64,000 nt of DNA from Alphaproteobacteria bacterium (GTDB taxonomy: Bacteria; Pseudomonadota; Alphaproteobacteria; Caedimonadales; UBA9215), in assembly GCA_965204765.1 (NCBI GenBank), contig CBDBFG010000003.1, positions 33,412 to 97,411 on the forward strand. Reading direction: 5' to 3'. The position numbers and the translations under genes are program-made. Below are positions 14,240 through 62,318 of the stretch, piece after piece. The notes under the pieces were generated by a model. That model was not told the origin of the DNA. It was given only the letters and a program-made list of their open reading frames with translations, and searched no databases. Every line of letters begins with the position of its first letter. Position 1 is the stretch's first letter.

Positions 14240-16111
14240 TCGGGATAGGGGGACCCTCACGGGTTTTCCCTCCCACACCACCTGCCATACGGGTCCGTAG
14301 CAAGGCGGTTCAATTTAGTTAAATGCTTTCATTGTTGATAATTTTGGTACTCCAAGTTTATCAAAATAATTTATGCCCATAGCTATTTTAGTTCCAGTAG
14401 TGTCACTAATTCTCCAAGGACCCTTACTTGATATTGCAGTTCTATATGCAGTTCTCAAATCGACACCTAGTTTAATAAGATTTTTCATGCGACGTCTATA
14501 TGTTTTCCATTGTTTCCATTGGACACATCGCAGTCTGTGTCTTATCCATTTGTCTAAGATCTTTAATACAGAGCGAGTTTCACAAATTCCAAAATATGCG
14601 TACCATCCATGTAGATATTGAGATAGAGTTTTAATTCTCTTCTCCATACCTATACTCCAGTTTCTGCTGGTAATTTTCTTTACCTCTTGCTTGAACTTTT
14701 GTATTGCTTTTGGTGATATACCTATATTAGATATTTCTGGTCTTCTAACTAGGCAAAAACCTAAAAATGATCTTTTCCTTGATGATGCAACCGCACTTTT
14801 CTCCTGATTTACTCGGAGCTTAAGTTTTTGCATTATAAACTTATTTATACTTTTCATTACTCTATTTCCAGAACGTTCACTTTTGACGTATATATTGCTA
14901 TCATCAGCGAATCTGCAAAATTTATGACCTCTGTCTTCCAATTCTTTATCAAATTCATCTAGGATAATATTTGAAAGAAAAGGTGAGAGCGGACCACCTT
15001 GTTGCACTCCTTCTTTAGAATATTGCTCAACTCCATTTTTCATAATTCCACTTTTAAGATAAGCCCGTATAAGTTTTAATAGTCTTTGATCTTTTATGTT
15101 TTTCGCCAATTTACTCATCAATCGATCATGATTAATGAAATCGAAGAATTTTTCGAGATCAATGTCTACCACGGTGCTATATCCTTGTCGCACATATTCT
15201 TTAGCTTTTAATATAGCCTGATGTGCGGATTTACCAGGACGAAATCCATAACTATTTTCTGAAAACAGCGGATCCCATTTCTGTTGCAAAATTTGAAGAA
15301 TGGCTTGTTGTATAAGTCTATCTATAGTGCATGGAATAGATAATTTACGCACACCTTTGCCATTAGGTTTAGGTATTTCAATTAGTTTTATTCCTTTCGG
15401 TTTGTATGCACCGTTTAGAAGAGAAGATTTTATAGTTAGCCAGTGTAATTTTAAGAATTCTGGAAGTTCATTGACAGTAATATTATCTATCCCTGCGCTT
15501 CCTTTGTTCTTACACACCTTTCTATAGGCAATTATAAGATTATTTCTAGAGCATATTTCCTCCATTATCCTGTCATTAAACATTGGCTTTTCGTTATGTT
15601 GTTCAGCTGTTGATAAATCAGCACTCGAGTCAGCTACTTCAGGCTTCACCTTCAGCTCATATCCCAAGTTCTTATTCAAGTTTGACTGCCTTTTCATATT
15701 ATCAACATTTCTTCAACTACTACTTAGCTTTCTAGATTGTTCAGGCCTTCGGACACCGTGTCCTACTATGCCATCTGCGGACTTCTGTATAGCATTACAA
15801 AACCTCCCGATTTTGCTAGTTTGTTTTCACAAAACATCCATACAGATCTCCCGTGGTAAGCACTATAACTTTCTGTACACAACTGCTGAATTTACGCTTT
15901 GAGTTCTTGATGGATATGGACTTCGCAATCACAAGCTTGCTCTTCCAACTCTAACGCCTCATATTCAGTTTCTGTTCGTCAGCTCATACTTTTGTTTCAC
16001 ACTTCCTTCAGACAAGACCTCACGATATTGCCCTTGTGCTTCCCTAACCTTCAGCTCCATCAGCTTGGTAAGAGGACTTTCACCTCTCTAGTAATAGTGC
16101 ATGCACGGCAC
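14240..16111 (-). mobile_element. bacterial class C (IIC) group II intron, ~1.87 kb; boundaries approximate (+/- a few nt)
   Basis: The RT/maturase ORF is flanked by ribozyme sequence. The 5' end on the minus strand reads GTGCCGTGCATGCAC...GAGAGGTGAAAGTCCTC...TCTGAAGGAAGTG...GAATATGAGGCG. Just after the ORF stop comes the domain V-like hairpin TTGAACCGCCTTGCTACGGACCCGTATGGCAGGTGGTGTG, with a CGC triad and a 2 nt 3' bulge. A GTGA-tetraloop hairpin with a bulged A (14246) follows as the domain VI candidate. An 11 bp stem-loop plus T-run lies in the 5' exon. Confidence 0.85.
14315..15697 (-). CDS. group II intron reverse transcriptase/maturase (no endonuclease domain)
   Basis: 460 aa with RT motifs: GSAGIDNITV, RKLSIPCTIDRLIQQA, YGFRPGKSAHQA, VVDIDLEKFFDFINHD, QGGPLSPFLSNIILDEFDKEL, FCRFADDSNIYV. 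The maturase X domain has the RHRLRCVQWKQWKT region and a short C-terminal tail ending YFDKLGVPKL. Confidence 0.95.
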   Translation of the reverse strand: MKRQSNLNKNLGYELKVKPEVADSSADLSTAEQHNEKPMFNDRIMEEICSRNNLIIAYRKVCKNKGSAGIDNITVNELPEFLKLHWLTIKSSLLNGAYKPKGIKLIEIPKPNGKGVRKLSIPCTIDRLIQQAILQILQQKWDPLFSENSYGFRPGKSAHQAILKAKEYVRQGYSTVVDIDLEKFFDFINHDRLMSKLAKNIKDQRLLKLIRAYLKSGIMKNGVEQYSKEGVQQGGPLSPFLSNIILDEFDKELEDRGHKFCRFADDSNIYVKSERSGNRVMKSINKFIMQKLKLRVNQEKSAVASSRKRSFLGFCLVRRPEISNIGISPKAIQKFKQEVKKITSRNWSIGMEKRIKTLSQYLHGWYAYFGICETRSVLKILDKWIRHRLRCVQWKQWKTYRRRMKNLIKLGVDLRTAYRTAISSKGPWRISDTTGTKIAMGINYFDKLGVPKLSTMKAFN

Positions 16112-31257: not shown

Positions 31258-31644
31258 ATGCAATATAAATTACTATCTTTGGTTCTTGGTACAACTTTGT
31301 TAGTGAATAGTCACTGCAATTGTGCAGATCCCATTGATGCAGAAGCAGAACAATCACCAACTGTCTTAAGACATGGTGGACAATTTATACGCTTTGAAGG
31401 ACAAATGAGTCCAAAAGAGCAACAAGATCTTCATCGTGGAAGAGATACTGCTGCACGTCAAAGGCCATCATCAGCAAAACCACAACAACGTGATAGCGAT
31501 GAAAAAACTGGCACGGCGCAACCTAGAAAATCTCATCCGTTAAAGGGGTGTAAAAGATTACCAGGAGTGGAGCCTGCATCAACTGAACTTCAGGGTGATT
31601 GGGCAAAAATGGCACAACTATCACACCCAGCTAGTGATCAATAA
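31258..31644 (+). CDS. hypothetical secreted, low-complexity (Q/R/P/S-rich) protein
   Basis: RBS AAGGGAGA lies 8 nt upstream. The signal peptide is MQYKLLSLVLGTTLLVNS. The body looks disordered, and its base composition is visibly more GC-rich than its neighbours. A strong hairpin follows. Confidence 0.5.
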   Translation: MQYKLLSLVLGTTLLVNSHCNCADPIDAEAEQSPTVLRHGGQFIRFEGQMSPKEQQDLHRGRDTAARQRPSSAKPQQRDSDEKTGTAQPRKSHPLKGCKRLPGVEPASTELQGDWAKMAQLSHPASDQ

Positions 31645-31921: not shown

Positions 31922-32710
31922 CTAACAAAACACTGAGTGATAAATTTTGCTTACATCCTTGATGGATCTGGAATTGGGATATAATTTAACAATTGATTCT
32001 TGCTGTCTAATCGAGTGTTTTACACGATTATCCTTTCTAATGATCCCACCCAGATCAGGTGCAAACTTTAAAAATTTCTGACACACAGAGGCAAAACCAT
32101 TATAAATTTGCTTGCCACTTTGCAGTGAATCAACTTGATTAACTATAATTTTTATATGCAAAGCAGGATATGATCGCTTTATGACCTTGATAAAAGCATA
32201 CGCATCAGTTAAAGAAGTTGGTTCATCCGTAAGCACCAATAGACATTGACCAGAAATATTGGCTAGACTTTGAATATTATCCCCTATGCCAGCCCCCAAG
32301 TCCATTAAGATAAAATCATAATCTGAGGCCGAATGTCTAATCTCTTCACGGACTATTGATAATCGTGCAGGTGAAATATTAGCTAAATAGCCAAATCCAG
32401 ATCGACCGACAATAATGTCAAAATTGCCTTCCTTGTACTCTGTAATAGCTTCATGAAAGCTAATGGTACCATCTACTATACCACCCAAATCCTTGTCAGC
32501 ATAAAGCCCAAGCTGAATATCAAGATTGGCTAAGCCCAAATCCCCATCAAACAATAATACCCTCTTTTTGTTCATCGACATTATATGGGCCAAAGTAGCG
32601 GTAAACCAAGTTTTACCCACTCCTCCTTTACCAGAGGCGATCATAACTATTTTATGGTTAGCCTGGTCACGATAATCACACATATTAGCAATTTGTGCTG
32701 AATAATTCAT
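31922..32710 (-). CDS. flhG: MinD/ParA-type ATPase FlhG (FleN/YlxH), flagellar number regulator
   Basis: Deviant Walker A IASGKGGVGKT, a Walker B-like ILMDLGAG, and a position directly downstream of flhF. I prefer the ATG at 32710 (MNYSAQ), which forms an ATGA overlap with the flhF stop; the ORF track starts at 32737. Confidence 0.8.
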   Translation of the reverse strand: MNYSAQIANMCDYRDQANHKIVMIASGKGGVGKTWFTATLAHIMSMNKKRVLLFDGDLGLANLDIQLGLYADKDLGGIVDGTISFHEAITEYKEGNFDIIVGRSGFGYLANISPARLSIVREEIRHSASDYDFILMDLGAGIGDNIQSLANISGQCLLVLTDEPTSLTDAYAFIKVIKRSYPALHIKIIVNQVDSLQSGKQIYNGFASVCQKFLKFAPDLGGIIRKDNRVKHSIRQQESIVKLYPNSRSIKDVSKIYHSVFC

Positions 32711-33780
32711 GCTTTCACCTTTAACGTTGATATCCATGATGGTAAATCACTATCATTTGATAATTGTTTGCTCTGTATTTCATCAATTTTTTGTTGCTTA
32801 TCTGGTATGTACCTGGTTAACACCTTTAATAAATTATCAGCAGTTGCCTGCCACAAACGATTACCAATTTCAGGACCAAAACTCATTGCACTAAATTCGA
32901 ACTTTTCTTTGTGTAAAATTGATAACAACCCACCTAGTCTTCTAGTCGCATCAAAGCGTGTCATCATTAACCTGGAACAACCAAAATTACGAAATGCCCC
33001 AGCGGTTTCAATCATTTCATAAGAATCCCCGCCTGCAGAAAGCACAAGAATAGGAGACAATTTTGCTGCTAATACAAATTCTTGTAATTTTGTCGTCTCA
33101 CTACTATTCAAACAATTTGTACTAGGCGTATCAATAAGATAAACTACATCATTATTATTAGCATTTGCTCTTTCCAATTTTTTAGCAAGCTCGGTAGGAT
33201 TATTAATTAAATGTAGTGGTACATTAATAGCCGATGCATAAGCCTGCATTTGCTCGATAGATCCTGCACGTAAATAATCAGTTAAAATAAGCTCGACCCG
33301 CTTTTTACAAACCAATAATTCAGTTGCTATCTTGGTTAAAGTGACCGTTTTCCCAACACCAACAGGACCACTAAGCATTAAATGCTGCATATTATAATTA
33401 CTATAATTCAAATGATAAAATTTAAACAAAGTATTTAAGATCGCTGTCATACCATCATTTAATGCTGTGTTTGGTAAGGCATAGACATTCGACGTAATTT
33501 CCTCGATAATTTCATTTGGCGGACTATGATATGACAGAATATCACATAATAAATTCTTAACATCCAGTACCCTAGATCGTCCTGCAATAGAATCATTTAA
33601 CTTCATATAATCATTAAATTTTTCCTGTGGTATAGCCTGATCTTGTTCATGCGCTACCGTTACTCTAACAATTCCATGTTCATTAGCAGTTGAAACAATG
33701 ATAGCATCCAACCCTAGCTCTTTTTTGATTTGTGCCATTACAACTTGAATACTTGTACCTGTATATGTTCGTAAATGCAT
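32707..33780 (-). CDS. flhF: flagellar biosynthesis SRP-type GTPase FlhF
   Basis: G1 LSGPVGVGKTVT, LILTDYLRAGSIEQ (TDxxR), YLIDTPS (DTxG-like), and a position between flhA and flhG. Confidence 0.85.
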   Translation of the reverse strand: MHLRTYTGTSIQVVMAQIKKELGLDAIIVSTANEHGIVRVTVAHEQDQAIPQEKFNDYMKLNDSIAGRSRVLDVKNLLCDILSYHSPPNEIIEEITSNVYALPNTALNDGMTAILNTLFKFYHLNYSNYNMQHLMLSGPVGVGKTVTLTKIATELLVCKKRVELILTDYLRAGSIEQMQAYASAINVPLHLINNPTELAKKLERANANNNDVVYLIDTPSTNCLNSSETTKLQEFVLAAKLSPILVLSAGGDSYEMIETAGAFRNFGCSRLMMTRFDATRRLGGLLSILHKEKFEFSAMSFGPEIGNRLWQATADNLLKVLTRYIPDKQQKIDEIQSKQLSNDSDLPSWISTLKVKA

Positions 33781-33781
33781 A

Positions 33782-35875
33782 TTACACCGTCGCTAATGTT
33801 TGTATTTTTGCTTTTGGATGCACCTCATTATGAGATAAAACAACGATAGATGAACGTAATCTTTCAATAATAGAATAGATATGGGGTCGTAACGTTGCAT
33901 TAACCAACAAAACGGGTGACTTACCCTTGCCGGCTTGCTCATCAAATACTTTTTGAATTAATTGTGTAAATTCCTGTAACTTAGTCGGCGGCAATGCTAA
34001 ATACGAACTCTCTCCACTTGCAGCCAAAGCATTTTGCAACTCACTATCCCAATCAGGAGACAAAGTAACTATTGGCAAAATAGCATTGGAATCAGAATTA
34101 GAGGAACTAATCTGTCTTGATAGCCTTACTCTAACATGCTCTGTTATTTGGGTAACATTTTTTACTGTATTACAGACCTCGGCAATCCCCTCAAGAATAG
34201 TTGGTAAATCTCTAATCGAAACTCTTTCTTTTAATAAATTCTGTAATACCCTTTGTATATTACCCATAGTAATTTGTGCAGGGCATATATCTTTGATCAA
34301 TTTTTGGTGTATTTTATCCAAACCATCAATCATTTTTTGTGTTTCAACAAAATTAAATAGATCACTGGTGTTGTCTTTAATTGTTTCACTGATATGAGTA
34401 ACCAATACTGTTAAAGGTTCTACTACTGTATAACCTTTGTCTTCAGCCTCACGCTTTTGCGTATGTGTTATCCAAATGGCCTGCAAACCAAAGGTAGGTT
34501 CCTGGGTTAACTCGCCATGAATATCTAAAGTTGGGCCTGATGGATTCATGCACATTAATAAGTCAGGCTTAATTTCGCCGCTTGTTACTTCAAGTTCTTT
34601 TATTTTGATGACATATTGAAATTGGTTTAGCTCTAAATTATCTTGAATCCGTACAGTAGGTAAGACAAAACCAAGATCTTTTGCAATTTGAGATCGTAAA
34701 GCCTTTACTTGTTCGGTAAATTTTTGTCCCTGTGTACCATTAAGCAGAGGCAACAGACCGTAACCAACCTCTAATCTTACTTGATCCATATGTAAAGCTT
34801 CTTTTACAGGATCAGATACATCATCTGGCTGTACAGCGGTTTCTTTTTTCTCAGCTTGCTGTTGATTAATTATATCTTGCTTTTCTGATATTTTCCACGC
34901 CCCTACACCAGTAACTAAAGCCAATATTATAAACGGCGCGAATGGAATTCCTGGTAATAAAGCTAAACATGCCATTAAAAATGAACTAAGACCTAGCGCT
35001 GCTGGATAAGCACTCAATTGCGCAAATAATGCTTTATCAGATGAACCATCTACGCTAGTTTTTGATACTAATATACCCGCAGCAGTAGAGACAATCAAAG
35101 CAGGTATTTGTGATACTAGTCCATCACCAACCGTAAGCATAGTGTAACTTTGTGCAGCATCACTAAATGATACTCCCATTTGTGCGACACCAATTATGAT
35201 ACCACCAATAATATTAATAAAGGTTATACATAGCCCGGCTATTGCATCTCCTCTAACAAACTTTGCCGCACCATCCATAGCACCATAAAAATTTGATTCT
35301 GTTTCTAGAGTTTTTCTTCTTAATTTCGCTTCTTCTTCATTAATAATTCCTGCTGATAAATCTGCGTCCACGGCCATCTGTTTACCAGGCATTGAATCTA
35401 AAGTAAATCTTGCCGATACTTCGGCAATACGACCGGAACCCTTGGTAATGACTACAAAATTTACTAATACCAAAATAGCAAATACTATTAGGCCTATCAC
35501 AAAATTACCCTGCATAATAAAGGCACCAAATGCCTTGATCACTTGCCCAGCAGCATTCGCACCTTCATGACCATGTCCAAGGATCAATCTAGTTGATGCA
35601 ACATTAAGTGATAACCGCAACATTGTACTAACTAATAACAGAGTCGGAAATGAATTGAACTCTAATGGTCGTTCAATAAATAAAGCTGTTACCAAAACTA
35701 GTATAGAAACCATTAATGATAAAGCTAAAGACATATCCAGTAACCACCTGGGCATTGGCAATACCAATACTGTTAAAACTGCCATTATTCCCAAGGCAAA
35801 GATAATATCTCCACGCTTGGACAGTTGCGACAGTTTATTTATTCCCCACAGTGGCATACTGGTACTATCTGACAT
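33782..35875 (-). CDS. flhA: flagellar type III export gate protein FlhA
   Basis: 697 aa with the FHIPEP motifs FPTLLLVSTMLRLSLNVASTRLIL, GNFVIGLIVF, RIAEVSARFTLDSMPGKQMAVDADL and FVRGDAIAG, plus a cytoplasmic C-domain. Confidence 0.97.
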   Translation of the reverse strand: MSDSTSMPLWGINKLSQLSKRGDIIFALGIMAVLTVLVLPMPRWLLDMSLALSLMVSILVLVTALFIERPLEFNSFPTLLLVSTMLRLSLNVASTRLILGHGHEGANAAGQVIKAFGAFIMQGNFVIGLIVFAILVLVNFVVITKGSGRIAEVSARFTLDSMPGKQMAVDADLSAGIINEEEAKLRRKTLETESNFYGAMDGAAKFVRGDAIAGLCITFINIIGGIIIGVAQMGVSFSDAAQSYTMLTVGDGLVSQIPALIVSTAAGILVSKTSVDGSSDKALFAQLSAYPAALGLSSFLMACLALLPGIPFAPFIILALVTGVGAWKISEKQDIINQQQAEKKETAVQPDDVSDPVKEALHMDQVRLEVGYGLLPLLNGTQGQKFTEQVKALRSQIAKDLGFVLPTVRIQDNLELNQFQYVIKIKELEVTSGEIKPDLLMCMNPSGPTLDIHGELTQEPTFGLQAIWITHTQKREAEDKGYTVVEPLTVLVTHISETIKDNTSDLFNFVETQKMIDGLDKIHQKLIKDICPAQITMGNIQRVLQNLLKERVSIRDLPTILEGIAEVCNTVKNVTQITEHVRVRLSRQISSSNSDSNAILPIVTLSPDWDSELQNALAASGESSYLALPPTKLQEFTQLIQKVFDEQAGKGKSPVLLVNATLRPHIYSIIERLRSSIVVLSHNEVHPKAKIQTLATV

Positions 35876-37233
35876 TACGCATTACCATGTTTTGCTGTGG
35901 GTGAAGCTATAACTTCATCATGTTTTAATGTTTCTTGTCCCTGTTCGACATATAATTTCAATTTATTCCTTAATGTTCTGATCGATATACCTAAAATATT
36001 AGCCGCATGAGTGCGATTGCCTAAGCAATGTGACAACGTACTGATGATTAAATCTTTTTCTACATCAGAAATGGTGCGTCCAACCAAAATATTAGATTTA
36101 ATATCACTGTCCTTTACTTGCTCTGTGGTATTATTATTAATAAAAATATTCAGATCTTTTGCTTGAATAGTTTCTCCTTGCGCTAGTAAAACAGAACGGT
36201 GCATCACATTTTCCAGCTCTCTTATGTTACCAGGCCACATATATTTGCGTATTAACATCTTGGCATCTTCAGCAAGGTATCTCAGAGGTAAGGCATTGGC
36301 TTTGGTATATTTTTCTATAAAATGTGAAGCTAATATTTCGATATCCATAGGCCTACTACGCAACGGTGGTAATTTTAATGGCACAACATTTAAACGGAAA
36401 TAAAGATCCTCACGAAATTCTCCCTTGGTCACACTTTCCTCTAAATCACGATTACTAGTTGCTATTATCCTAATATCCACCTTGACTGGTTTATTACCAC
36501 CAACTCTATCAATAGTTCGTTCCTGTAATGCACGTAATAATTTTGCTTGTAACGATGGATGCATTTCACTTACTTCATCCAATAATAATGTGCCACCGCT
36601 TGCTTCCTCGAATTTACCTATCCTTTGCGCTATTGCACCGGTAAACGCTCCTTTTTCATGTCCAAACAACTCTGATTCTAATAGATTCTCGGGAATTGCC
36701 GCACAATTAACAGATACAAACTGGGCCGCTGATCGTTTACTATTTTGATGAATAAATTGGGCCATTATTTCTTTACCGGTACCAGACTCACCAGTAATCA
36801 AGACACTCGCATCACTAGGGGCAATTTGTTTTGCCAGCTCTGATATCTGTACCATAGCAGAATCCTTGTGCACAAAACTGTTATCTTCTACAGCAACACT
36901 TTCCAGTACAGCAGCTATTAAATCAGCATCGGGTGGTAATGGTACATACTCCTTGGCACCATCTTTGATTGCTTGCACCGCAATGGCACTATCGGTACCA
37001 ATACCACAGGCAACCACAGGAATATTAAACCGCTCGGTATACAAAGACTGTACCATACCTTTGATGTTAAAACTGACCTCAACCATTAATAAATCACTAC
37101 CTTGGCCTGAGCGTAATTTTTGTAATGCCTCATCTATTGTGTGCGCATGGTTTACCGCAGCCCCTTTTGCAATAGCAATTCTACTTGCAGCACCTATATG
37201 ACCCTGTAATTTGCCAACTATTAACAAACGCAT
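35875..37233 (-). CDS. flbD: sigma-54-dependent flagellar transcriptional activator FlbD
   Basis: Atypical receiver MRLLIVGKL...DLLMVEV. The AAA+ domain has GESGTGKE, ESELFGHEKGAFTGA and WPGNIRELEN. The C-terminal HTH is LGNRTHAANILGISIRTLRNKLK. The gene is placed after fliN, as in the Caulobacter fliF operon. Confidence 0.9.
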   Translation of the reverse strand: MRLLIVGKLQGHIGAASRIAIAKGAAVNHAHTIDEALQKLRSGQGSDLLMVEVSFNIKGMVQSLYTERFNIPVVACGIGTDSAIAVQAIKDGAKEYVPLPPDADLIAAVLESVAVEDNSFVHKDSAMVQISELAKQIAPSDASVLITGESGTGKEIMAQFIHQNSKRSAAQFVSVNCAAIPENLLESELFGHEKGAFTGAIAQRIGKFEEASGGTLLLDEVSEMHPSLQAKLLRALQERTIDRVGGNKPVKVDIRIIATSNRDLEESVTKGEFREDLYFRLNVVPLKLPPLRSRPMDIEILASHFIEKYTKANALPLRYLAEDAKMLIRKYMWPGNIRELENVMHRSVLLAQGETIQAKDLNIFINNNTTEQVKDSDIKSNILVGRTISDVEKDLIISTLSHCLGNRTHAANILGISIRTLRNKLKLYVEQGQETLKHDEVIASPTAKHGNA

Positions 37234-37342
37234 ATTATTATCCTCACGGTTAGTTATAGTATTTTTATCTGTTGCTACTTTTTTTTTACATTTACGCTAA
37301 GCTACAAACTGGGTTGTAACCATTAACAACGCCATAGCACTA

Positions 37343-37636
37343 TTATGCTACCTGCTCTGATTTAATAATCTCTGTCATCGTAATACCCAGGTGTTCATCA
37401 ATTACTACGACTTCTCCCCGTGCCACCAAACGATTATTAATATAAAGATCCACAGGATCCCCTACTTTTCTATCTAACTCTATCACGGCTCCGCGGCTTA
37501 ATTTTAATACCTGGCTCACCTGCATATTTACTTGCCCCAGTACCGCCGATACTTTCACAGGTACATCATACACAGCAGAAATATTTTCTTCTTGTGGCTG
37601 ATCAATCTTAGTATTTTTTTTCTTTGCATTAGCCAT
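37343..37636 (-). CDS. fliN: flagellar motor switch protein FliN
   Basis: 97 aa SpoA domain: VPVKVSAVLGQVNMQVSQVLKLSRGAVIELDRKVGDPVDLYINNRLVARGEVVVIDEHLGITMTEI. Confidence 0.9.
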   Translation of the reverse strand: MANAKKKNTKIDQPQEENISAVYDVPVKVSAVLGQVNMQVSQVLKLSRGAVIELDRKVGDPVDLYINNRLVARGEVVVIDEHLGITMTEIIKSEQVA

Positions 37637-38363
37637 TTGTAGTCTCCATATTATCGCCTCTATTCACATCATATAAATTATATTCTTCTAGTTTTTGCTT
37701 AAGCTGATCAATACTATCATCGGGGGCAAACTGTAATAAAACAGTACTAATTTCCTGTAAAACATTCGTAGTATAACTTTCTATGCCCCCTCCTTGCCAC
37801 TCTACTAAACAATCAACCTTGTCTATGGTATCTGAACCAATTATGTTAATTTCTGCATCTGTTTCTTTAGCAAGAAAACTCTTATAATATTTTTTAGTTT
37901 CATCTAACAGTGCAGAATTAACCGTAATCTTGATTGGTTTATCATTTGGCAAAGATTGACAAGACTTGTGCAAAATACTTTTAACAATTTCAATAGCATA
38001 ATTATTAGTGATAAATGGTAATAACTTTTGAATAATTACATAACAAAGACTCGCAACATCCTTATGAAATTGTTTGCTATTTTGTCGACTTTCTATTACC
38101 AACGAATTACATTTGTCGGCAATTATCTTGGCTTGCTCTATTGCCAAGGATTTATTAGTCAAGTTAGCTTTCTTTGTAGCCTCGGCAAATCCCTCATTAA
38201 ATGCCTGTTCTTTTGCACTTTCAAGTTCTTGCCGCAAAATATCTATGTCAACTGGAACCGAATGTGTAGTACTTTCATTAATTTTTTCTTGATTGTTACG
38301 ATTTTCAAACAAGTATTTTTTTACATCTTTACTATTTGATGTCCTAGGCGATAAGCTGTTCAT
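37629..38363 (-). CDS. fliH: flagellar assembly protein FliH-like (FlbE position)
   Basis: 244 aa with a coiled-coil-like E/K/Q-rich N-half (LRQELESAKEQAFNEGFAEATKKAN). It sits between fliG and fliN, as flbE/fliH does in alphaproteobacteria. Sequence signal is weak. Confidence 0.6.
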   Translation of the reverse strand: MNSLSPRTSNSKDVKKYLFENRNNQEKINESTTHSVPVDIDILRQELESAKEQAFNEGFAEATKKANLTNKSLAIEQAKIIADKCNSLVIESRQNSKQFHKDVASLCYVIIQKLLPFITNNYAIEIVKSILHKSCQSLPNDKPIKITVNSALLDETKKYYKSFLAKETDAEINIIGSDTIDKVDCLVEWQGGGIESYTTNVLQEISTVLLQFAPDDSIDQLKQKLEEYNLYDVNRGDNMETTNG

Positions 38364-39369
38364 TATTACCCCCTTTTACTATAGTAATGTCTTCTGACTC
38401 TATTAATTGTTTTGCTTGTTGCAGTATTTTATTTTGTGCATTTTCTACTTCACGCAGACGAACCATACCTAGAACTTCCATGTCTTCTAACATCAATTTT
38501 CCTGCTCTTTCCGACATATTTTTAAAGAATAAATCTTTCAATTCTTCATTAGCCCCTTTCAAAGCAAGACTAAGATTATTTTTATCGATACTACGCAGAA
38601 GTGTCTGTACCCCAGCTGGATCTAGGAAAACAAGATCATTAAAGGTAAACATTAACTCTTTAATTCTTTCAGCTGATTCATGATTACTATCATCAAGCAA
38701 AGACAGTAGAACCCCTTCTGTTTCAGAATCAAAATGATTAAATATTTCCGCTAACTTTTCGTGGGGATCTTGTTGTTCTGAACGCGCAAAATTTGAAATA
38801 AATTCAGATTTTAAAGTTTCCTCAATGTTGTGCAAAACATTGCTTTGTATGTTATCTGCATTAATCATTCTATCCATTACATCTACGGCCAGTTCTTTTG
38901 GTAAGAACGACAGTACCTTGGCCGAACTTTCAGGACTTATTTTCGAGAGGATAACCGCTATAGTTTGTGGATGCTCATTCTTTAAATAAGATGATAGCGC
39001 CTTTTCATCCACATTATTCAATTTATCCCACATTGTAGAGCCTAATGGACCTCTTATTTCGGCCATAATTTTTTCTACTTTGTGTTTGTCAAATACCTTA
39101 TTTAACATTGATTCTGTGGTACTAATAGTACCAATCATAGATGCGCCAGAACCAACTTTGTGTACAAATTCTTCAAATATTGTTTCCATAGTATTGGCAC
39201 CAATACTACCCAGTTTTGACATTGCATGAGATATTTCCACTATTTCTATTTCATCCAACTCATTAAAAATTTTCTGCACCTGTTCATTGGGAAGAGCTAG
39301 TAAAAACGCCGCAGCCTTTTCCTTACCTATTAATGGTTGTGCTGTTATTCTACTAATATTTTTATCCAT
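38344..39369 (-). CDS. fliG: flagellar motor switch protein FliG
   Basis: 341 aa with GKEKAAAFLLAL, EHPQTIAVILS, and the C-terminal torque-helix region MSERAGKLMLEDME. Confidence 0.93.
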   Translation of the reverse strand: MDKNISRITAQPLIGKEKAAAFLLALPNEQVQKIFNELDEIEIVEISHAMSKLGSIGANTMETIFEEFVHKVGSGASMIGTISTTESMLNKVFDKHKVEKIMAEIRGPLGSTMWDKLNNVDEKALSSYLKNEHPQTIAVILSKISPESSAKVLSFLPKELAVDVMDRMINADNIQSNVLHNIEETLKSEFISNFARSEQQDPHEKLAEIFNHFDSETEGVLLSLLDDSNHESAERIKELMFTFNDLVFLDPAGVQTLLRSIDKNNLSLALKGANEELKDLFFKNMSERAGKLMLEDMEVLGMVRLREVENAQNKILQQAKQLIESEDITIVKGGNNEQLIA

Positions 39370-39381
39370 AATAATCCCTCA

Positions 39382-41037
39382 TTATTTACGCTCATGAATC
39401 CATTCGCGTACTAAATTAGCCGACTCTAATGGGTTACTTTCAACTACTGTAGCTATTTTCCGCACCATAGAATCATTAAACTGCACAGCAAATTGCCCTT
39501 CAGTACTCGCATCTTCTGTATCACCGTCAGCTTGCTTGATAGCATCATTATCATCAGTACTTTGATCCATTAGTTGTGCTTGGTTAGCATTGTTCATATC
39601 TTCTTCCATTGCGTCAGCCTCTTCATCTTTAGCAAAAATCTTATAGATCACTGGTTTAACAAAGAATAAAATACCAAATAATCCAAGCAAACCCATCACG
39701 ATCACTTCTACCAAATGAATAATTTCAGCATTACTTAATGAAATCCATGTACTAGCAACAGTCGGCACATCAACACCTGTACGTGCAAACTGCATATCTA
39801 ACACTTCTATGCTATCCCCTCTTTGTTGATTAAAACCAATAGCATTTTTAACTAAGGTTTTAATTTTATTTAATTCGTCTTCTGATCGGGCATCATAGGT
39901 TAAGTTACCACCCGCATCCTTGTTATATTTACCATCTACCATCACTGCAATTGATAGACGTTTAATTTCTCCAATCTCTTTTATATGAGTCTTTAATGTT
40001 TTCGAAATTTCATAGTTTACGGTTTTATCATGCTTTTTGTTATTTGCCTTGGCACCGGCCAATTCATTCGTTGCTTTACTGCGAGGCAAAGAGCTTTCGA
40101 TAGAGGTATCACCCTTATTATTTGCAGACTCTAACGAAGATTCATCTTCTGCACTAGTTTGTTTTGATCTAATCACCTGACCATCTGGATCATACATTTC
40201 CGTATTTTCAGTAATACGATCAAAATTCATTGTCACTGAAACTTCTGCTCTAATTTTATTAAGACCAACATGCTTTTCTAATAATCTTTCTATCGTTTGT
40301 GACATCCTGTTTTCATGTGCAATTCTCATTTCCTCTAAATTGGAAATAGCTGTTATCTGAGTCTGATTATCACCCTTGGCCAATAAATTACCCCGATCAT
40401 CTACGATAGAAACCTTTTCTGGCACCAAACTTGGTACAGCAGCAGCAACCATATACTGAATAGCCTTTACCTTGCTTGGGGATAATTTGGCAACCATATT
40501 CAAAGTCAAAACGATTGATGCGCTCGGCTCTTGACGATCACGGCTAAAAATTTCTCTACGTGGTAGCACAAGATGTACCCTGGCTGATTCAACTGCAGAA
40601 ATAGAACTTATACTACGGGAAATCTCACCTTCTAATGCACGCAAGTGATTAATATCTTGTATAAAACTTGATGTCCCAAGACCTTCACTTCTATCAAATA
40701 TCTCATAACCGGTAGAGCCTCCTCTGGGCAAACCTAATTCTGCTAATTCCATACGTAATCTGGCGACCGAATCAGATGGCACATAAATTGCAGTCCCACC
40801 TTGCCTGATATCTACGGCAATACCCATAGTTTCTATTTTGTTAACAATTTTGCTAGCATCACCAAGATCTAAATTAGAATATAAGACCGATAAACTTGGC
40901 TCACTTATTTTACTGATCATAAGATGAATGCACCCTATGCTTAAAATACCAATAGCAAAAATTACCCCCAGCTTTGCAATGCCAAACTCTTTTATTTTAT
41001 TCAGTATTTGATCCAAAGGTTGCCTCCCAGAAAACAT
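39382..41037 (-). CDS. fliF: flagellar MS-ring protein FliF
   Basis: 551 aa with an N-terminal TM segment, YscJ/FliF domains (LYSNLDLGDASKIVNKIETMGI, ARVHLVLPRREIFSRDRQEPSASIVL), a second TM segment and an acidic C-tail. Confidence 0.93.
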   Translation of the reverse strand: MFSGRQPLDQILNKIKEFGIAKLGVIFAIGILSIGCIHLMISKISEPSLSVLYSNLDLGDASKIVNKIETMGIAVDIRQGGTAIYVPSDSVARLRMELAELGLPRGGSTGYEIFDRSEGLGTSSFIQDINHLRALEGEISRSISSISAVESARVHLVLPRREIFSRDRQEPSASIVLTLNMVAKLSPSKVKAIQYMVAAAVPSLVPEKVSIVDDRGNLLAKGDNQTQITAISNLEEMRIAHENRMSQTIERLLEKHVGLNKIRAEVSVTMNFDRITENTEMYDPDGQVIRSKQTSAEDESSLESANNKGDTSIESSLPRSKATNELAGAKANNKKHDKTVNYEISKTLKTHIKEIGEIKRLSIAVMVDGKYNKDAGGNLTYDARSEDELNKIKTLVKNAIGFNQQRGDSIEVLDMQFARTGVDVPTVASTWISLSNAEIIHLVEVIVMGLLGLFGILFFVKPVIYKIFAKDEEADAMEEDMNNANQAQLMDQSTDDNDAIKQADGDTEDASTEGQFAVQFNDSMVRKIATVVESNPLESANLVREWIHERK

Positions 41038-41235
41038 TACAATCTAAAATTTGATTATAATTTTAATAACATATTCTACACAAATGGTTAACAGAACGTA
41101 AAAATTAGACTAGAAATGGAAAATTTTTCCTAGTGGAAGGAAAAATGTACAACTTATGAATATAGTGATAGTGCTATGGGTTAGTTTTTCCAAAAACTAG
41201 GTAAAAATAATATTATAAAGGTTATATATTCTAAT

Positions 41236-42633
41236 CTACCTAAAATCATCCCCCCCCATTAACAACCATTTAGCACCTTCTGGTAAATGTAAAAATGAAC
41301 CTCCTGGTCCTATATACTGTCCTAAACCTGGCCCTATATTGTTGAGTGCACTAGCCGAAGCCGATAAAATTGTTACTAAATCTAAATCATAAACACTTAA
41401 ACCTAAACACAGAAAAGCAAAGCTAAATATATAAATTCCAAAAAATGTTAAGACAGAGTTTGCTACTCTATCCGATATCACCTGATTATTATATTTAGGG
41501 GTAAATACGCCATTAGGACGTCTAATTTGTTCTAAGTATGACCGTACGACTGTGAATATTATTTGATATCTAAATATTTTTATACTACCTGATGTAGAAC
41601 CGGTACACCCTCCAACCATCATTAGTACAAACAGTAACATTACTGGTAAACTACCCCACATGTTGTAATCAGCCGAAGTATAACCAGTAGTGCTAATAAT
41701 AGAAATTGTATTGAAGGCTGACTCTCTGAACGATTGTAGCAAAGAAATATTTTCATTTGTAAAACGCCATAGTGTTATCGATAACACACAAAAGGCTGTT
41801 AAACTCAAAAATGCTTGCACCTGGCTATCGCGCAAAATAGCATAATAATCCCCACGTAACATTTTAATAAACAAGATCAACGTAATAGAACTAACCAACA
41901 TAAAAATACAAATAATAAATTCTACTAGTGGATTCTGGAAATAACCTATTGAACTATCTGCTGTTGAAAATCCCCCAGTTGCAACCGTAGTCAATCCATG
42001 ACACAGCGCATCTATAAAATCCATACCCGCTAAGAAAAGAGCAAAAGAACATAATACTGTAAACAAAATATAGGTCGATACAATTGCTATGGCTATATGT
42101 GATACCCGAGGCATTATTTTTTCTGATCGATCAGAAAACTCACTATGTAAAAGCTGTATACCGCCAATCTTAAGCACAGGCATAACAGTAAAAGCCATAA
42201 CTATAATTCCTATACCCCCAAACCATTGCAATAGGGAACGCCACACCAATACACCATAAGAAGTAATATTTAAACCATCAATAACCGTTGCACCAGTCGT
42301 AGTAAGACCCGATATCGATTCAAATAAAGAGTCAGTATACGAACCATTGGGATTACATAAAACAAAAGGCATGGCTGCGAACAGTGGCACTATTAACCAA
42401 CTTATCGCGGTTAGTAAAAATGTCTCTCTTGTGGTCATAGTAAAACTATCAGAAGACTTATTCGCTATAATCATCAAAGTACCACAAAAGGCAGTAATCG
42501 CTATGGCGACGGCAAAGTTATGCCATTGCTCAGAATGAACCAGTAAATCTATTACCATTGGGATAATCATCATCATAGCTAAGGCTATCAAGAAAAAACC
42601 AATAGCTAAAAATATAGGACGAAATGATATCAA
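41236..42633 (-). CDS. trkH: potassium uptake protein TrkH; C-terminus disrupted by a frameshift in a G8 run (full gene would span 41181..42633)
   Basis: TrkH-family multi-TM protein (GLTTTGATV, SISTTGYTSADY, GGCTGSTSGSIK). As written it ends ...AKWLLMGGDDFR*. Removing one G restores ...KWLLMGGMILGRLEYITFIILFLPSFWKN*, the canonical TrkH tail. Confidence 0.9.
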   Translation of the reverse strand: MISFRPIFLAIGFFLIALAMMMIIPMVIDLLVHSEQWHNFAVAIAITAFCGTLMIIANKSSDSFTMTTRETFLLTAISWLIVPLFAAMPFVLCNPNGSYTDSLFESISGLTTTGATVIDGLNITSYGVLVWRSLLQWFGGIGIIVMAFTVMPVLKIGGIQLLHSEFSDRSEKIMPRVSHIAIAIVSTYILFTVLCSFALFLAGMDFIDALCHGLTTVATGGFSTADSSIGYFQNPLVEFIICIFMLVSSITLILFIKMLRGDYYAILRDSQVQAFLSLTAFCVLSITLWRFTNENISLLQSFRESAFNTISIISTTGYTSADYNMWGSLPVMLLFVLMMVGGCTGSTSGSIKIFRYQIIFTVVRSYLEQIRRPNGVFTPKYNNQVISDRVANSVLTFFGIYIFSFAFLCLGLSVYDLDLVTILSASASALNNIGPGLGQYIGPGGSFLHLPEGAKWLLMGGDDFR

Positions 42634-42959: not shown

Positions 42960-43017
42960 TAACCATCCCCCATCTACTTGATTATACCTTAGAATTGTGT
43001 TACCACCAGTTTATATT

Positions 43018-43138
43018 CATCGGGGTGCCTGAATACGTAATATTTACCATTCACGCGTAAATATAGCACAAAAATTCGTATATGGCTGAGATTATACCCG
43101 TAGTGAACCTGATATGGGTAATGCCAACGAAGGAAAGT
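43018..43138 (+). promoter_or_regulatory. TPP (THI-box) riboswitch controlling thiBPQ
   Basis: Conserved aptamer elements GGGGTGCC (43022-43029), CTGAGA (43086-43091), ACCCG, GAACCTGATATGGGTAATGCCAACGAAGGAAAG. An extended P3 hairpin spans 43033-43081. The 3' aptamer tail AGGAAAG doubles as the SD, 7 nt before the thiB ATG. Confidence 0.9.
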
Positions 43139-43144
43139 GAATAA

Positions 43145-44071
43145 ATGCGATTATGTCTTGTTGCATGCTTAATAATTATCAATCATAAAAGCTGGGCACA
43201 GCAACCTGTGCTAATCTGCATACATGAATCTATGTATCAATGTATCAAGAATATTATTCGCAAACAAAAAATAAACAATGTAAAATTACAATCATTTTCT
43301 AGATCATCATTAATACTGCAACTTAGAAAACATCATCCAGATATCATTATTGGTATCGACAATAGCCAAATACATGAATCCTATATATCCTCTATCACCG
43401 CCAAAATACCAAAGCAATTTTTTACTAAATTAACGGTACCATTCGAATGGACTAATGAATTTTATATACCATTTGCATACATGTACGGGGCATTTTTTTA
43501 TAACAGTAAAAAAGTTCAATTGCAGCAAACTAACCTGGAACAATTCCTTTGCTCGGCGGCTAAGCAATCTATTATACTACCAGATCCCAGGACATCCTCC
43601 ATTGGTAGAGTATGGTTATCCTGGCTACACCATAATCGTACCCGATTACCACATAGTTTGTTAAAACAAAAGGTTGCTTGTTATCCGAAAAACTGGCAAG
43701 CATGTTTTACACTTTTTCATAATAATAATGCCCATGTTATGTTTGGCTACACAACATCATATCTGTATTATCTTGCTAATAATATCAGTCATGTAAAATG
43801 GATCAATTTTACTAAGCAACCTCACCCTATAAAAGTATTTACCGTTATAGTGAACAAAAATTCTAACCATACTAAGTTGACCATAACAAAAATATTAACC
43901 TTCCTATATAGCAAACCTTTGCAAGACTCTCTCACACAATGTTATTGCTTTCCTGTTATCGATACTAATATTTCAGATGAATTTAAATTATGCATACCGT
44001 TGCGAAGTTACGTACCAATACCTGTCAAAGAAACTGAATTAATAAATAGTTGGTTTATAGGTAGTATCTGA
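43145..44071 (+). CDS. thiB: thiamine ABC transporter periplasmic binding protein
   Basis: Blocks align with E. coli TbpA/ThiB as I recall it: DIIIGIDNSQ (ADVVLGLDNNL), YIPFAYMYGAFFYNSKK (FVPFDYGYFAFVYDKNK), ILPDPRTSSIGRVWLSWL (IYQDPRTSTPGLGLLLWM), MFGYTTSYLYY (VLSYTTSPAYH). It has a signal peptide and an upstream TPP riboswitch. Confidence 0.8.
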   Translation: MRLCLVACLIIINHKSWAQQPVLICIHESMYQCIKNIIRKQKINNVKLQSFSRSSLILQLRKHHPDIIIGIDNSQIHESYISSITAKIPKQFFTKLTVPFEWTNEFYIPFAYMYGAFFYNSKKVQLQQTNLEQFLCSAAKQSIILPDPRTSSIGRVWLSWLHHNRTRLPHSLLKQKVACYPKNWQACFTLFHNNNAHVMFGYTTSYLYYLANNISHVKWINFTKQPHPIKVFTVIVNKNSNHTKLTITKILTFLYSKPLQDSLTQCYCFPVIDTNISDEFKLCIPLRSYVPIPVKETELINSWFIGSI

Positions 44072-45447
44072 TGCTTACTATAATGATGCATATTGTCAAA
44101 AACACCATATTACAAGCAATAATATCTGCTACAATCAGCTGTGCAGTCGGGATATTAATCGCCAGAACAATTCATTTGTATCATCTTACAAGAATTACCC
44201 TGGGTGTACGCATACTAGGACAATTAATGTTCATTACTCCGTCTATATCGATATGTATTATTGCACTTAATACATTAGACAACATACAAGGAATACAAGG
44301 AATTATTGTTTGTAACGTTGCCATTAACTTATTCTATTGTTGCACAGTAATCCTCGACACATACCAAACCCAATTTACCCAACATACCCGTAGTAGTATT
44401 GCATTATTAAAATTGGATAATCTGCAAAAAATTATGCTACTTGAATTACCAATTATTAAGTCAGCAATTGCATATTCATTTATCATTACTTTGATTATGT
44501 GTATAAATAATTTTGGTATTTGCATGATCATGGGAAACGGCCCGCAAACCACAACGCTACCCGTAATGATTTATCAATATTCTACCCTTGATCAAGACAA
44601 TCTAGTGTTAATCACTTGTATTGTATTACAAGTCTCATTATCGATGGCATGCTTTATTAGTATGCATAAAATGCACGATGTAAAGCTTGGTCAAAATTAC
44701 ATATGGCAAAATAATCAACAGCTACACCCTGTCTGGTTACTAAGTGCAGTAGTGATTAGCACATACTATTTTGCCCCATTTATACAAAATAACTATTGCG
44801 TTAATACACTGACAAATTCTATCACAATAGCCACAATCACAGGATTACTCTGCATGAGTCTTAGCCTGTTCATTCTTACCTATCTTTTCATCACGCAAAA
44901 AATATATAATTTACGATATCACTACATCATGAACGGTCTATGCAGTATACCCAACCTGGTTATAATAACCTCGGTATATGCTATATCGCTACGATTGCTC
45001 AATGATCGCTATAGCTGTGTAATAGCGTTAATAATAGTTAATGTGCTGCTGTACATACCATTTACATTATTTTTCCTTGTCAACAGTATCAAGAAACTTT
45101 CCCGAAATTATTATCAATCAACCTTATTACTACGACTAAATTATTGGCAAGTATTATTTACAATTATATTACCATTATGTAAACGCAATATAACCCTGGT
45201 TGCTGGTATCATTTGCTGTTTTGCTATGGGTGATATTAGCGCACAACTTTTTTTCCTCATGGATCATGTAGAAACTTTGGCTATACAAGGCTATAAAACA
45301 GCCATTGTTTATAATCTGCAGGATGCAAGACAATATAATAACACTTTATTAACTATAGTGTACCTATTCATAATTGCTATCAATACAAGGTGGAAAATTG
45401 AAAAAATTAATTATAAAAAATTTAGAACATTGCTACGAACAGAATAA
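44071..45447 (+). CDS. thiP: thiamine ABC transporter permease
   Basis: 458 aa polytopic membrane protein (two permease-like halves) between thiB and thiQ. Its start overlaps the thiB stop (ATGA-type junction at 44071). Confidence 0.75.
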   Translation: MLTIMMHIVKNTILQAIISATISCAVGILIARTIHLYHLTRITLGVRILGQLMFITPSISICIIALNTLDNIQGIQGIIVCNVAINLFYCCTVILDTYQTQFTQHTRSSIALLKLDNLQKIMLLELPIIKSAIAYSFIITLIMCINNFGICMIMGNGPQTTTLPVMIYQYSTLDQDNLVLITCIVLQVSLSMACFISMHKMHDVKLGQNYIWQNNQQLHPVWLLSAVVISTYYFAPFIQNNYCVNTLTNSITIATITGLLCMSLSLFILTYLFITQKIYNLRYHYIMNGLCSIPNLVIITSVYAISLRLLNDRYSCVIALIIVNVLLYIPFTLFFLVNSIKKLSRNYYQSTLLLRLNYWQVLFTIILPLCKRNITLVAGIICCFAMGDISAQLFFLMDHVETLAIQGYKTAIVYNLQDARQYNNTLLTIVYLFIIAINTRWKIEKINYKKFRTLLRTE

Positions 45448-46000
45448 AATCTATAAATCTATAACCTATAACTTTTCTGTTGAGCCAACGAGACCAATAG
45501 CTATTATCGGCAAAAGTGGCTCTGGCAAAACATCTTTGCTTAATTTGATCACAGGCTTCACAACAATACAAGCAGGTAGCATACTATACAATGGACAAGA
45601 TATTAGTAACGATCAAGTTACCAAACGGCCAATTTCTTATCTAATGCAAAACCATATGCTATTTAACCATTTAAACCTCATGGATAATATGATTTTGGGC
45701 AACAGCAAAGCATCCCATAACATCCTTAAAATAGCTACTCACCTTGAAATAGCAGATCTTTTATCTTCCTACCCTAATCAAATTTCAACAGGACAAAGAC
45801 AACGTGCTTGCCTCATACAAGTAATCTTACAACAACGTCCTATTGTGCTATTAGATGAACCATTTGCTGGCTTAGATTACTATATGAAATGTAAATGTAT
45901 TGAACTAATAAAACAATATTGCAATAATTATCTAATTATTACTACCCACGATTTGGATGATATAACATTATTGGATGCAACGCCATATTATCTCCAATAG
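45374..46000 (+). CDS. thiQ: thiamine ABC transporter ATP-binding protein
   Basis: Walker A GKSGSGKTSLLN, signature-like ISTGQRQR and Walker B IVLLDEPFAGLD. A TTG at 45398 preceded by AAGGTGGA may be the true start. Confidence 0.8.
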   Translation: MLSIQGGKLKKLIIKNLEHCYEQNKIYKSITYNFSVEPTRPIAIIGKSGSGKTSLLNLITGFTTIQAGSILYNGQDISNDQVTKRPISYLMQNHMLFNHLNLMDNMILGNSKASHNILKIATHLEIADLLSSYPNQISTGQRQRACLIQVILQQRPIVLLDEPFAGLDYYMKCKCIELIKQYCNNYLIITTHDLDDITLLDATPYYLQ

Positions 46001-56601: not shown

Positions 56602-56838
56602 ATGAGCATAGGACCAGGTCAAATATTACTTATCGTTGTAGCATTACTGTTGCTGTTCGGCGCTAAAAGAATACCAAAGGCTATGTCAGAGCTAGCAAAA
56701 GGACTAAAAGCATTCAGAGATGGAATGTGCGATACCAAAAAGAAACCAAAGAAAAAAACAACCAAAGCTACGACTACTAAGAAGCGTCCTGCGAAAACTG
56801 CTACGAAGAAAACAACAGCCAGGCGTACAAAAAAATAA
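56602..56838 (+). CDS. tatA: twin-arginine translocase subunit TatA (Lys/Thr-rich tail)
   Basis: MSIGPGQILLIVVALLLLFGAKRIPKAMSELAKGLKAFRDG is a TatA/E TM segment plus amphipathic helix. RBS AAGGAG. Confidence 0.9.
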   Translation: MSIGPGQILLIVVALLLLFGAKRIPKAMSELAKGLKAFRDGMCDTKKKPKKKTTKATTTKKRPAKTATKKTTARRTKK

Positions 56839-56848
56839 ACTGAATACA

Positions 56849-57094
56849 ATGTTTAACTTAGGAAGTTTAGGCGAATTACTGATTATAGTTGTGGCAATAC
56901 TTGTATTGTTTGGACCAGCAAAGCTTCCTGAATTATTGTACGATCTAGGTCGATTGAAACAAAAACTTAGACTAATTATTAAGAGATTATCGGTTGACTT
57001 TGATCAATACTTGTCCAAGGGTGAACTGGATGAGTACCACAAGCAAGTAAATGATAAGTATATTAAACCACCTTCACAAGATAATATTGATTAA
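56849..57094 (+). CDS. tatB: twin-arginine translocase subunit TatB
   Basis: MFNLGSLGELLIIVVAILVLFGPAKLPELLYDLGRLKQKLR is a second TatA/B-type protein directly after tatA. Start at the internal Met of ORF 56720..57094. Confidence 0.8.
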   Translation: MFNLGSLGELLIIVVAILVLFGPAKLPELLYDLGRLKQKLRLIIKRLSVDFDQYLSKGELDEYHKQVNDKYIKPPSQDNID

Positions 57095-57639: not shown

Positions 57640-58440
57640 ATGATGTCTGTTGATAGAATAAAAGTAATACAATTGAACGATAGCAACAAAAATATGGCTT
57701 TAGTTGATCATTTGGCTGAACTGCGCAAACGAATGATAACAAGTATTGTACTACTTGTCCTTGGTTTTGCGCTATCCTATCCTTTTGCTAAACAAATATT
57801 TGGTTTTTTAATTAAACCACTAGCTGATATTATTGGTCAAGAATTACACAGAAAGTTAATTTATACCGGCTTAGCAGAAGCATTTATTACTTATGTAAAA
57901 ATTTCTATTTTTAATGGATTTATCGTTGCATTCCCATTTATTTTCTCTCAATTATGGGCCTTTATAGCACCAGGATTATACAACAATGAGAAAAAACTAT
58001 TTAGAATTATCTTTATAACCTCCCCTGTATTATTCTTACTGGGGGCATGCTTTGCTTTTTATTGGATTATTCCTTTGGCTTGGAAATTTTTCCTTAGTTT
58101 TGAAAGCTCTGCTATATCTACTTCTCTTCCTATCCAACTTGAAGCCAAAGTAAGCGAATATTTTTCTATGGTTTTACAAATGCTTATTGCTTTTGGAATA
58201 TGTTTTCAAATGCCCCTTGTCTTATTAATGCTTGCTAAATTAAATATTATTACCAGCACTGGATTACAGAACAAGCGCAGATACTCTATTATAGGTATTT
58301 TAATACTATCCGCTATTTTAACCCCACCCGATGTTTTAAGTATGATGGGTCTTGCAATACCACTTTATTTATTATATGAAGTATCGATTATCTTAATTAA
58401 AATTATGGTCCCTAGTACAAATAACTCGGAGATAAATTAA
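57640..58440 (+). CDS. tatC: twin-arginine translocase subunit TatC
   Basis: 266 aa with 6 TM segments. HLAELRKRMI N-terminus, FIAPGLY and ILTPPDV motifs. Confidence 0.93.
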   Translation: MMSVDRIKVIQLNDSNKNMALVDHLAELRKRMITSIVLLVLGFALSYPFAKQIFGFLIKPLADIIGQELHRKLIYTGLAEAFITYVKISIFNGFIVAFPFIFSQLWAFIAPGLYNNEKKLFRIIFITSPVLFLLGACFAFYWIIPLAWKFFLSFESSAISTSLPIQLEAKVSEYFSMVLQMLIAFGICFQMPLVLLMLAKLNIITSTGLQNKRRYSIIGILILSAILTPPDVLSMMGLAIPLYLLYEVSIILIKIMVPSTNNSEIN

Positions 58441-61388: not shown

Positions 61389-62318
61389 GTGATGATGCAA
61401 CATTTCTTTATAATACTTTTAGTATTAGTATTTAACTCTAACTTGGTAAGATCAAGCGTCCAAAAAGATATCGATAGCTTGGAAGACACCTCTGTTGTTA
61501 CGCGCAAATTTTCCAGAGCTGGCCTTGTCCATCTTTTCCGTATTATGGAAATCGATGTACCAGACGATTGTAATCTAGAGACACTAAACAGAATAGCACA
61601 AAAAGAATTTTTACGCCAAGGAGGAGAACGCTGGGAGGCACAAAAAGAACATCAAGAAAAATTCGCTAAAAAATCATTAGCTTTAATTCCAGCACTCAGA
61701 GAACTAGGATTCTACACAGAGATCAGACCTACAAGGCAACATTATGACATAGTAGTTGTTTTTGGTGCATTACATTCCAGGATGGTGACCAGGACTTTAT
61801 ATTTACAACAACTTTGGCATGATGGAATAAGAGCTAACAAGATAATATACCTCACAGGAAGTAGAGAATTGTTAGCAGGTGAAAAAGAGGAGTTATCATC
61901 TTATACTGATTCCACACATGCTGCACTAGAAAGAGATTTGCCCGTTTTAATTTGGCAAAAGTATATAACCGAAGAATCCCTGCGTACTCATGAATTTGAG
62001 AATATTTATGCTGAAGATATATTAGTTCCAGGCACACACACTAAGAGAAGAGCAAATACCGCCGACACTGTAGCAAGAATGATTGCTATATTGGCGTTAA
62101 ACAAAAAAGACCGCAATCCAGTTAAGATTTTAGCAATATCCAATAATCCATATATTGCCTATCAAGGGGTAACGTTGGAAAATGTTATGCGTAAGGCACA
62201 AGTCCTTATTCCTGGTGATAGTATTGAAACAGTAGGCGAACGAGCAAACGAGGATACTCCGCTTTTTTTAATGATGGATAGCTTGGCCAGAATAATATAC
62301 ACAATTACCCGGAAATAG
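61389..62318 (+). CDS. hypothetical exported protein (possibly a YdcF/DUF218-like fold)
   Basis: 309 aa with an N-terminal signal/TM segment. There is a loose DUF218-like pattern (DIVVVFGA...KIIYLTGSR...ANTADT...ILAISNNPYIAYQG). The family assignment is uncertain. Confidence 0.45.
   Translation: MMMQHFFIILLVLVFNSNLVRSSVQKDIDSLEDTSVVTRKFSRAGLVHLFRIMEIDVPDDCNLETLNRIAQKEFLRQGGERWEAQKEHQEKFAKKSLALIPALRELGFYTEIRPTRQHYDIVVVFGALHSRMVTRTLYLQQLWHDGIRANKIIYLTGSRELLAGEKEELSSYTDSTHAALERDLPVLIWQKYITEESLRTHEFENIYAEDILVPGTHTKRRANTADTVARMIAILALNKKDRNPVKILAISNNPYIAYQGVTLENVMRKAQVLIPGDSIETVGERANEDTPLFLMMDSLARIIYTITRK

Follow-up and report, generated by a model that had tools for sequence, protein, structure and literature searches.

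The gene described here lies on the minus strand of a 64-kb stretch of alphaproteobacterial DNA, referred to below as the window, in which an open reading frame at 41236..42633 (-) encodes a 465-aa protein of the TrkH family. The reading frame is canonical through G461, after which it continues with four aberrant residues, DDFR, and a TAG stop codon (41238-41236), such that the product ends KWLLMGGDDFR. The point of departure is a G8 homopolymer (41250..41257, -; C8 on the plus strand) that spans atG GGG GGG Gat and has one base too many; the coding strand at 41260-41236 (-) reads TTA ATG GGG GGG GAT GAT TTT AGG TAG, and the stop is located five codons past the run. When one G is removed, and the run is read as G7, trkH occupies 41181..42633 (-) and comprises 1452 nt and 483 codons, with a TTG start and a TAA stop (41183-41181), and its translation ends MGGMILGRLEYITFIILFLPSFWKN. 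The displaced 3′ segment (41181..41249, -) consists of an ATG, 21 further codons and the TAA, and encodes MILGRLEYITFIILFLPSFWKN. In effect, the frameshift swaps the last 22 residues of the protein for DDFR and a stop. A first-pass annotation of this DNA had proposed that trkH is cut short at G8 and that the canonical C-terminus continues in the next frame, and our analysis bears this out to the base, both for the reading of the coding strand and for the G7 repair.

The assignment of the gene to trkH, made in the same annotation, is also confirmed by profile and structure comparisons. The Pfam TrkH profile (PF02386; cutoff 27) matches the repaired protein with 200.3 bits and the truncated form with 184.3 bits. 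Residues 39-477 of the repaired protein cover profile positions 4-491 of 502, and the match of the truncated form ends at profile position 454 of 502. Residues 3-482 of the repaired protein align to 2-484 of the 485-aa TrkH of Vibrio parahaemolyticus (3PJZ/4J9U; E = 3e-85), and the motifs aligned with those of the Vibrio protein are LTTTGAT, ATGGFST, STTGYTS, NNIGPGLG and GGCTGSTSGSIK. The four P-loop motifs (filter glycines of the M1-P-M2 repeats), the D3M2 intramembrane-loop motif and the D4M2 GRLE motif are conserved in the repaired protein. The NCBIfam TrkH equivalog model NF008020 is aligned over 2-483 of 483 with 311.7 bits, below its cutoff of 866, and the TrkH subfamily model TIGR00933 gives 307.2 bits, below its cutoff of 331.15. 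Because these scores fall short of the curated cutoffs despite an end-to-end alignment, we regard the window protein as a divergent TrkH and not as the enterobacterial equivalog. By descent, the gene is a member of the TrkH family, and the product that it encodes is without a defining element of the family, the GRLE sequence of helix D4M2. It is an ordinary TrkH potassium-channel gene, and its host is an AT-rich alphaproteobacterium (35% GC) whose relatives include Holosporales-like MAGs.

On one side of trkH, a compact flagellar cluster on the minus strand (31922-41037), with genes for a MinD/FlhG-like ATPase, flhF, flhA, a sigma-54 activator, fliN, fliH, fliG and fliF, comes to within about 140 bp of the trkH 3′ end. 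On the other side lies a candidate TPP riboswitch (43011-43153, +), which scores 54.8 bits against an Rfam gathering score of 54.3, and directly 3′ of it is a three-gene ABC importer (43145-46000, +) whose products are a binding protein with a weak match, a permease and an ATPase. This importer, which is divergent from the adjoining trkH, is probably a thiamine system resembling thiBPQ. A scan for promoters and terminators around trkH yielded about as many hits as expected by chance. No trkA, ktr, kdp or kup was found when the main open reading frames of the window were scanned against Pfam. Relatives likewise have no trkA beside trkH, and the neighbourhood is therefore uninformative with regard to K+ redundancy.

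The remainder of the window contains several other features. A group II intron at 14315-16029 (-) carries a 460-aa RT/maturase ORF (RVT_1 + GIIM) and has Rfam group-II D1-D4 matches at 15744-15819 and 15861-16029; adjoining it is an ORF for a 114-aa N-terminal resolvase fragment (13596-13940, +), and together these suggest a patch of mobile elements. At 56602-57094 (+), upstream of tatC (57640-58440), two overlapping ORFs match the TatA/B/E family. They probably represent tatA and tatB, and the true start of the second would lie a good way into its long ORF. There is no Pfam match for the ORFs at 12548-12907, 31258-31644 and 61389-62318 (all +), which encode 119, 128 and 309 aa, respectively.

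The alignment to Vibrio TrkH (VpTrkH) indicates what the truncation removes. The displaced segment corresponds to VpTrkH residues 464-485, which form most of helix D4M2, and the arginine of its GRLE sequence is R466 in the repaired protein and R468 in VpTrkH, with numbering taken from the alignment. Compared with VpTrkH, the encoded window product stops after approximately the first eight residues of D4M2 and is without R466 and E468 (equivalent to R468 and E470), such that the gate arginine is absent from the 465-aa product and is present only in the displaced frame. A passage in PMC5449183, citing Cao et al. 2011, describes the highly conserved D4M2 arginine and the intramembrane loop as forming a molecular gate. 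For the related HKT proteins, a passage in PMC3821619, citing Kato et al. 2007, states that transport is diminished or lost when the equivalent M2D arginine is mutated. Because the lost segment of D4M2 carries this conserved gate arginine, the 465-aa product, as judged from its sequence, most likely either does not function or is severely impaired.

The best database match to the window protein, P0001, is the identical truncated 465-aa product, encoded on a 247-kb contig deposited at NCBI and ENA. The next match, P0002, is a full-length protein of 483 aa that is 81% identical without gaps and is derived from the ENA metagenome assembly ERZ25068762 (loci L001 and L002). It is followed by many homologs of 480-484 aa at 62% identity or less, which come from alphaproteobacterial MAGs, including Holosporales-like ones. 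The C-terminal helix (GRLE...P.FW) is kept in 119 of the best 120 homologs, each of which is encoded in a single frame, and the lone exception is P0001, which is this ORF. Homologs of 456-462 aa were considered as a natural short form and ruled out, as every one of them retains the C-terminal helix and the missing length is confined to the N-terminus. The claim that the next frame encodes the conserved last helix of the family is thus upheld, and, P0001 aside, none of the best 120 homologs ends at the short form.

At the nucleotide level, the P0002 loci L001 and L002 alike read ATG GGA GGG ATG, in frame and with no uninterrupted run, and distant relatives carry GCT GGC, GCG GCT, GCC GGA, GCG GGT or ATA GGG at this site. 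No G run is present at the site in loci L003-L007. Two differences separate the window from the P0002 locus here: a synonymous A>G substitution, by which the run becomes G7, and one additional G. The G tract is lineage-specific. No second copy of the allele was found, either in a metagenome scan for G6-G9 forms or in protein searches, and a genome scan yielded no relative above 62% identity. The last 25 residues of P0002 are those of the repaired window protein.

The P0002 locus shares one flank with the window, and the gene order trkH, thiBPQ-like importer, rpmB, GerE regulator is the same in both; on the other flank, the P0002 locus has IS fragments (ISL3, rve) where the window has fliF and the flagellar cluster. 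The ENA contig of this relative (ctg142005_2x_c) carries the locus twice, as L001 and L002. These copies differ by 1-nt indels (A9/A8 and A2/A3) at approximately positions 4211 and 4475 of L001, with the binding-protein gene split in just one of them, and show additional divergence within the IS region. Such differences suggest that this record contains assembly noise or a duplication that was collapsed.

Comparison with P0002 also places limits on the age of the break. Upstream of the run, pN is 0.113 and pS is 0.719. In the 22 codons past the run, there are no amino acid differences (0/22) and 10 synonymous differences (pS 0.82), and the earlier claim that the downstream frame has not decayed therefore stands. 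The absence of replacements where synonymous sites are saturated argues that purifying selection has acted on the displaced frame for essentially the whole period since the two sequences diverged. With approximately 54 nonsynonymous sites and zero replacements, any neutral period can have lasted no longer than roughly 0.05 substitutions per site, a loose limit that would amount to a few percent of the saturated divergence and makes the event "recent" only in a relative sense. Hence, of the suggestion that the break is "very recent", recency is consistent with the unchanged 22 codons, but "very" asks more than so short a segment can provide. The mutation, if it is one, would be young on the scale of the divergence of this lineage.

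Relative-rate tests with ten outgroups yield 25-32 window-specific replacements versus 15-23 specific to the relative, with p mostly between 0.09 and 0.77 and a single uncorrected value of 0.036. The excess on the window side is consistent in direction but not significant, and, where conserved sites are affected, the replacements specific to the window are mainly conservative ones. Such a small excess is as expected for a recent inactivation. An old, long-standing pseudogene was also considered and is unsupported, given that the rate excess is small and non-significant.

The G8 run is the longest G/C homopolymer in the window, which has no G/C 7-mers and three 6-mers. GGG is the rarest glycine codon in the window (12.8%), and the GGG-GGG pair at G8 is the only one among 63 Gly-Gly dicodons. 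Nevertheless, 0.20 G8 runs are expected by chance per window, and such a run is present in 16 of 100 dinucleotide shuffles; by itself, therefore, the run is statistically unremarkable. It becomes meaningful because it coincides exactly with a frame break in a conserved gene.

We consider a genuine, recent replication-slippage mutation from G7 to G8 to be the most probable explanation for this break, with a probability of roughly 0.55, and we infer that the extra G is present in the DNA of the organism and not only in the consensus. Under this explanation, a synonymous GGA>GGG change would first have turned the codons for Met-Gly-Gly-Met into an uninterrupted G7, and replication slippage would then have added one G to give G8. 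The resulting shift would trade the last 22 residues for DDFR and a stop, with the loss of most of D4M2 and the gate arginine. A real mutation is favored because the break falls exactly at G8 and the G7 repair restores a full-length TrkH, and also because the closest relative has an in-frame GGGAGGG in both copies and 119 of 120 homologs keep the last helix. Counting against a real mutation is that the loss of trkH is not otherwise motivated.

The main competing explanation, to which we assign an appreciable but clearly smaller probability, is a sequencing or assembly artefact, in which case the organism would carry G7 with trkH intact at 483 aa, and the homopolymer would have been over-called by one base in the consensus. 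Several observations are compatible with such an error. No G/C homopolymer in the 64 kb is longer than the one at the break, the displaced frame is fully preserved, purifying selection is evident throughout the gene, and there is no significant acceleration of the rate. Indeed, the intact displaced frame, the near-normal evolutionary rate and an intact MutS are equally expected of an error. Furthermore, the long-read-style contig of the relative carries small-indel discrepancies (the A9/A8 and A2/A3 differences between its copies), although the indel noise of L001 and L002 belongs to a different assembly.

Homopolymer errors that depend on length should leave other traces, and the window shows none. 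Approximately 50 other window genes match Pfam profiles essentially end to end, including mutS, uvrC, ftsZ, ntrYX, accBC, der, asd, the flagellar genes, glyQS, serS and tatC, and no other homopolymer-associated frameshift was found among the roughly 50 genes scanned against Pfam. Likewise, the intragenic A/T runs, which comprise six 8-mers and about thirty 7-mers, are all in frame. Both the intact genes and these runs argue against a consensus that is prone to homopolymer errors. In addition, the source contig, at 247 kb, seems more typical of a short-read assembly, where indel errors at a G8 run would be rare.

A different possibility is that G8 is real and that functional TrkH is nonetheless made by recoding. 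Three routes can be envisioned: a +1 slip of tRNA-Gly on GGG GGG G, slippage of RNA polymerase to yield a G7 mRNA, or re-initiation at the ATG that follows the run, in which case a separate 22-aa peptide containing the last helix would assemble with the 465-aa body. Taken jointly, we judge these routes to be very unlikely. As read from the sequence, GGG GGG G does permit perfect +1 re-pairing, and a slip of the ribosome there would be sterically possible. Moreover, the segment at 41247-41257 (-) is predicted to pair with the anti-Shine-Dalgarno sequence at -9.7 kcal/mol, which is among the strongest such sites in the window; this value beats the sequence upstream of 40 of 41 window gene starts and is reached by 0.27% of random sites. 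The ATG of the displaced frame directly abuts the run, and the stop in the original frame lies 12 nt beyond. However, the tract is unconserved (GGGAGGG, in frame, in the 81% identical relative, and no run in others), and there is consequently no sign of selection for a shift site. The codon after the run is GAT, and neither a stop codon nor a known slow codon is present at the site. For re-initiation, the Shine-Dalgarno-like pairing leaves a spacing of just 1-3 nt before the ATG, less than normal initiation requires. The narrower proposal that G8 is tolerated, either because the anti-Shine-Dalgarno pairing aids a +1 slip of tRNA-Gly or because the channel is naturally split into a 22-aa helix and a 465-aa body, appears marginally less probable again.

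Slippage of RNA polymerase was put forward in the first-pass annotation, which suggested that a slippage-prone tract might still yield some full-length product, and this suggestion is weakened by published transcriptomes. In E. coli and Buchnera, homopolymer insertions in transcripts were all in A/T runs, G/C runs were judged not to be slippage-prone, and deletions were rarely in homopolymers (PMC5574713). Rescue of trkH would require a -1 event in a G run, and the tract itself is absent from relatives. On this published evidence, we reject transcriptional slippage as a likely rescue; the run is G8 and not the A/T run of about 9 nt or more that such rescue would call for.

The poly-G tract might alternatively act as a phase-variable contingency switch that toggles trkH on and off at high frequency, with the OFF state captured in the assembly. 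This is the least probable of the explanations that we considered. PMC8355987 describes intragenic poly-G/C tracts as hypermutable elements that underlie phase variation in AT-rich Campylobacter species, and a G8 run inside a coding region is exceptional for a window of 35% GC. On the other hand, the tract is lineage-specific as far as the compared loci indicate, with GGGAGGG in L001 and L002 and no run in L003-L007. It is located 95% of the way into trkH, whereas A/T tracts proposed as on/off switches of genes cluster at 5′ ends (PMC2831843). Furthermore, trkH encodes a housekeeping ion channel and is neither a surface nor a restriction-modification gene, and only one such tract occurs in 64 kb. 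The mutS gene (4702-7383, +), whose long ORF shares 62 nt with the end of tatD, is intact with all five domains, which likewise speaks against a hypermutable switch. Mismatch repair limits homopolymer instability. A mutL gene was not seen within the window.

The favored explanation of a recent slippage mutation and its main competitor both describe an ordinary event, namely a one-base homopolymer expansion that truncates a conserved gene, either as a young mutation or as a consensus error, and not a new mechanism. For annotation, the consequence is that the public 465-aa protein P0001 is the product of a frameshifted trkH and does not represent a shorter variant of TrkH. Should the extra G be real, the organism would recently have lost or crippled its Trk channel, and the locus would be one more case of gene inactivation at a homopolymer in an AT-rich, mobile-element-bearing alphaproteobacterium. 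The break in trkH makes no open question newly testable.

The trkH locus resembles several known systems in part. One parallel is with the phase-variable genes of Campylobacter, Neisseria and Bordetella that carry poly-G/C tracts: like them, trkH contains within its coding sequence a G/C homopolymer of about 8 nt, and a change in its length shifts the frame. Unlike in those genes, the trkH tract is unconserved, 3′-terminal and single, and it resides in a housekeeping transporter of an organism with an intact mutS. The resemblance to +1 frameshifting of the prfB type includes the +1 direction, a re-pairable P-site codon and a Shine-Dalgarno-like element close upstream. The prfB shift site is conserved and autoregulatory, whereas that of trkH is unconserved among orthologs and is without a stop codon. 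Finally, the slippage-rescued frameshifts of Buchnera and Blochmannia involve A/T runs and mainly the addition of a base, whereas trkH has a G run and would need the loss of one base. With the poly(A) frameshifts of these bacteria, trkH nevertheless shares a conserved gene, an AT-rich host and a downstream frame that is intact.
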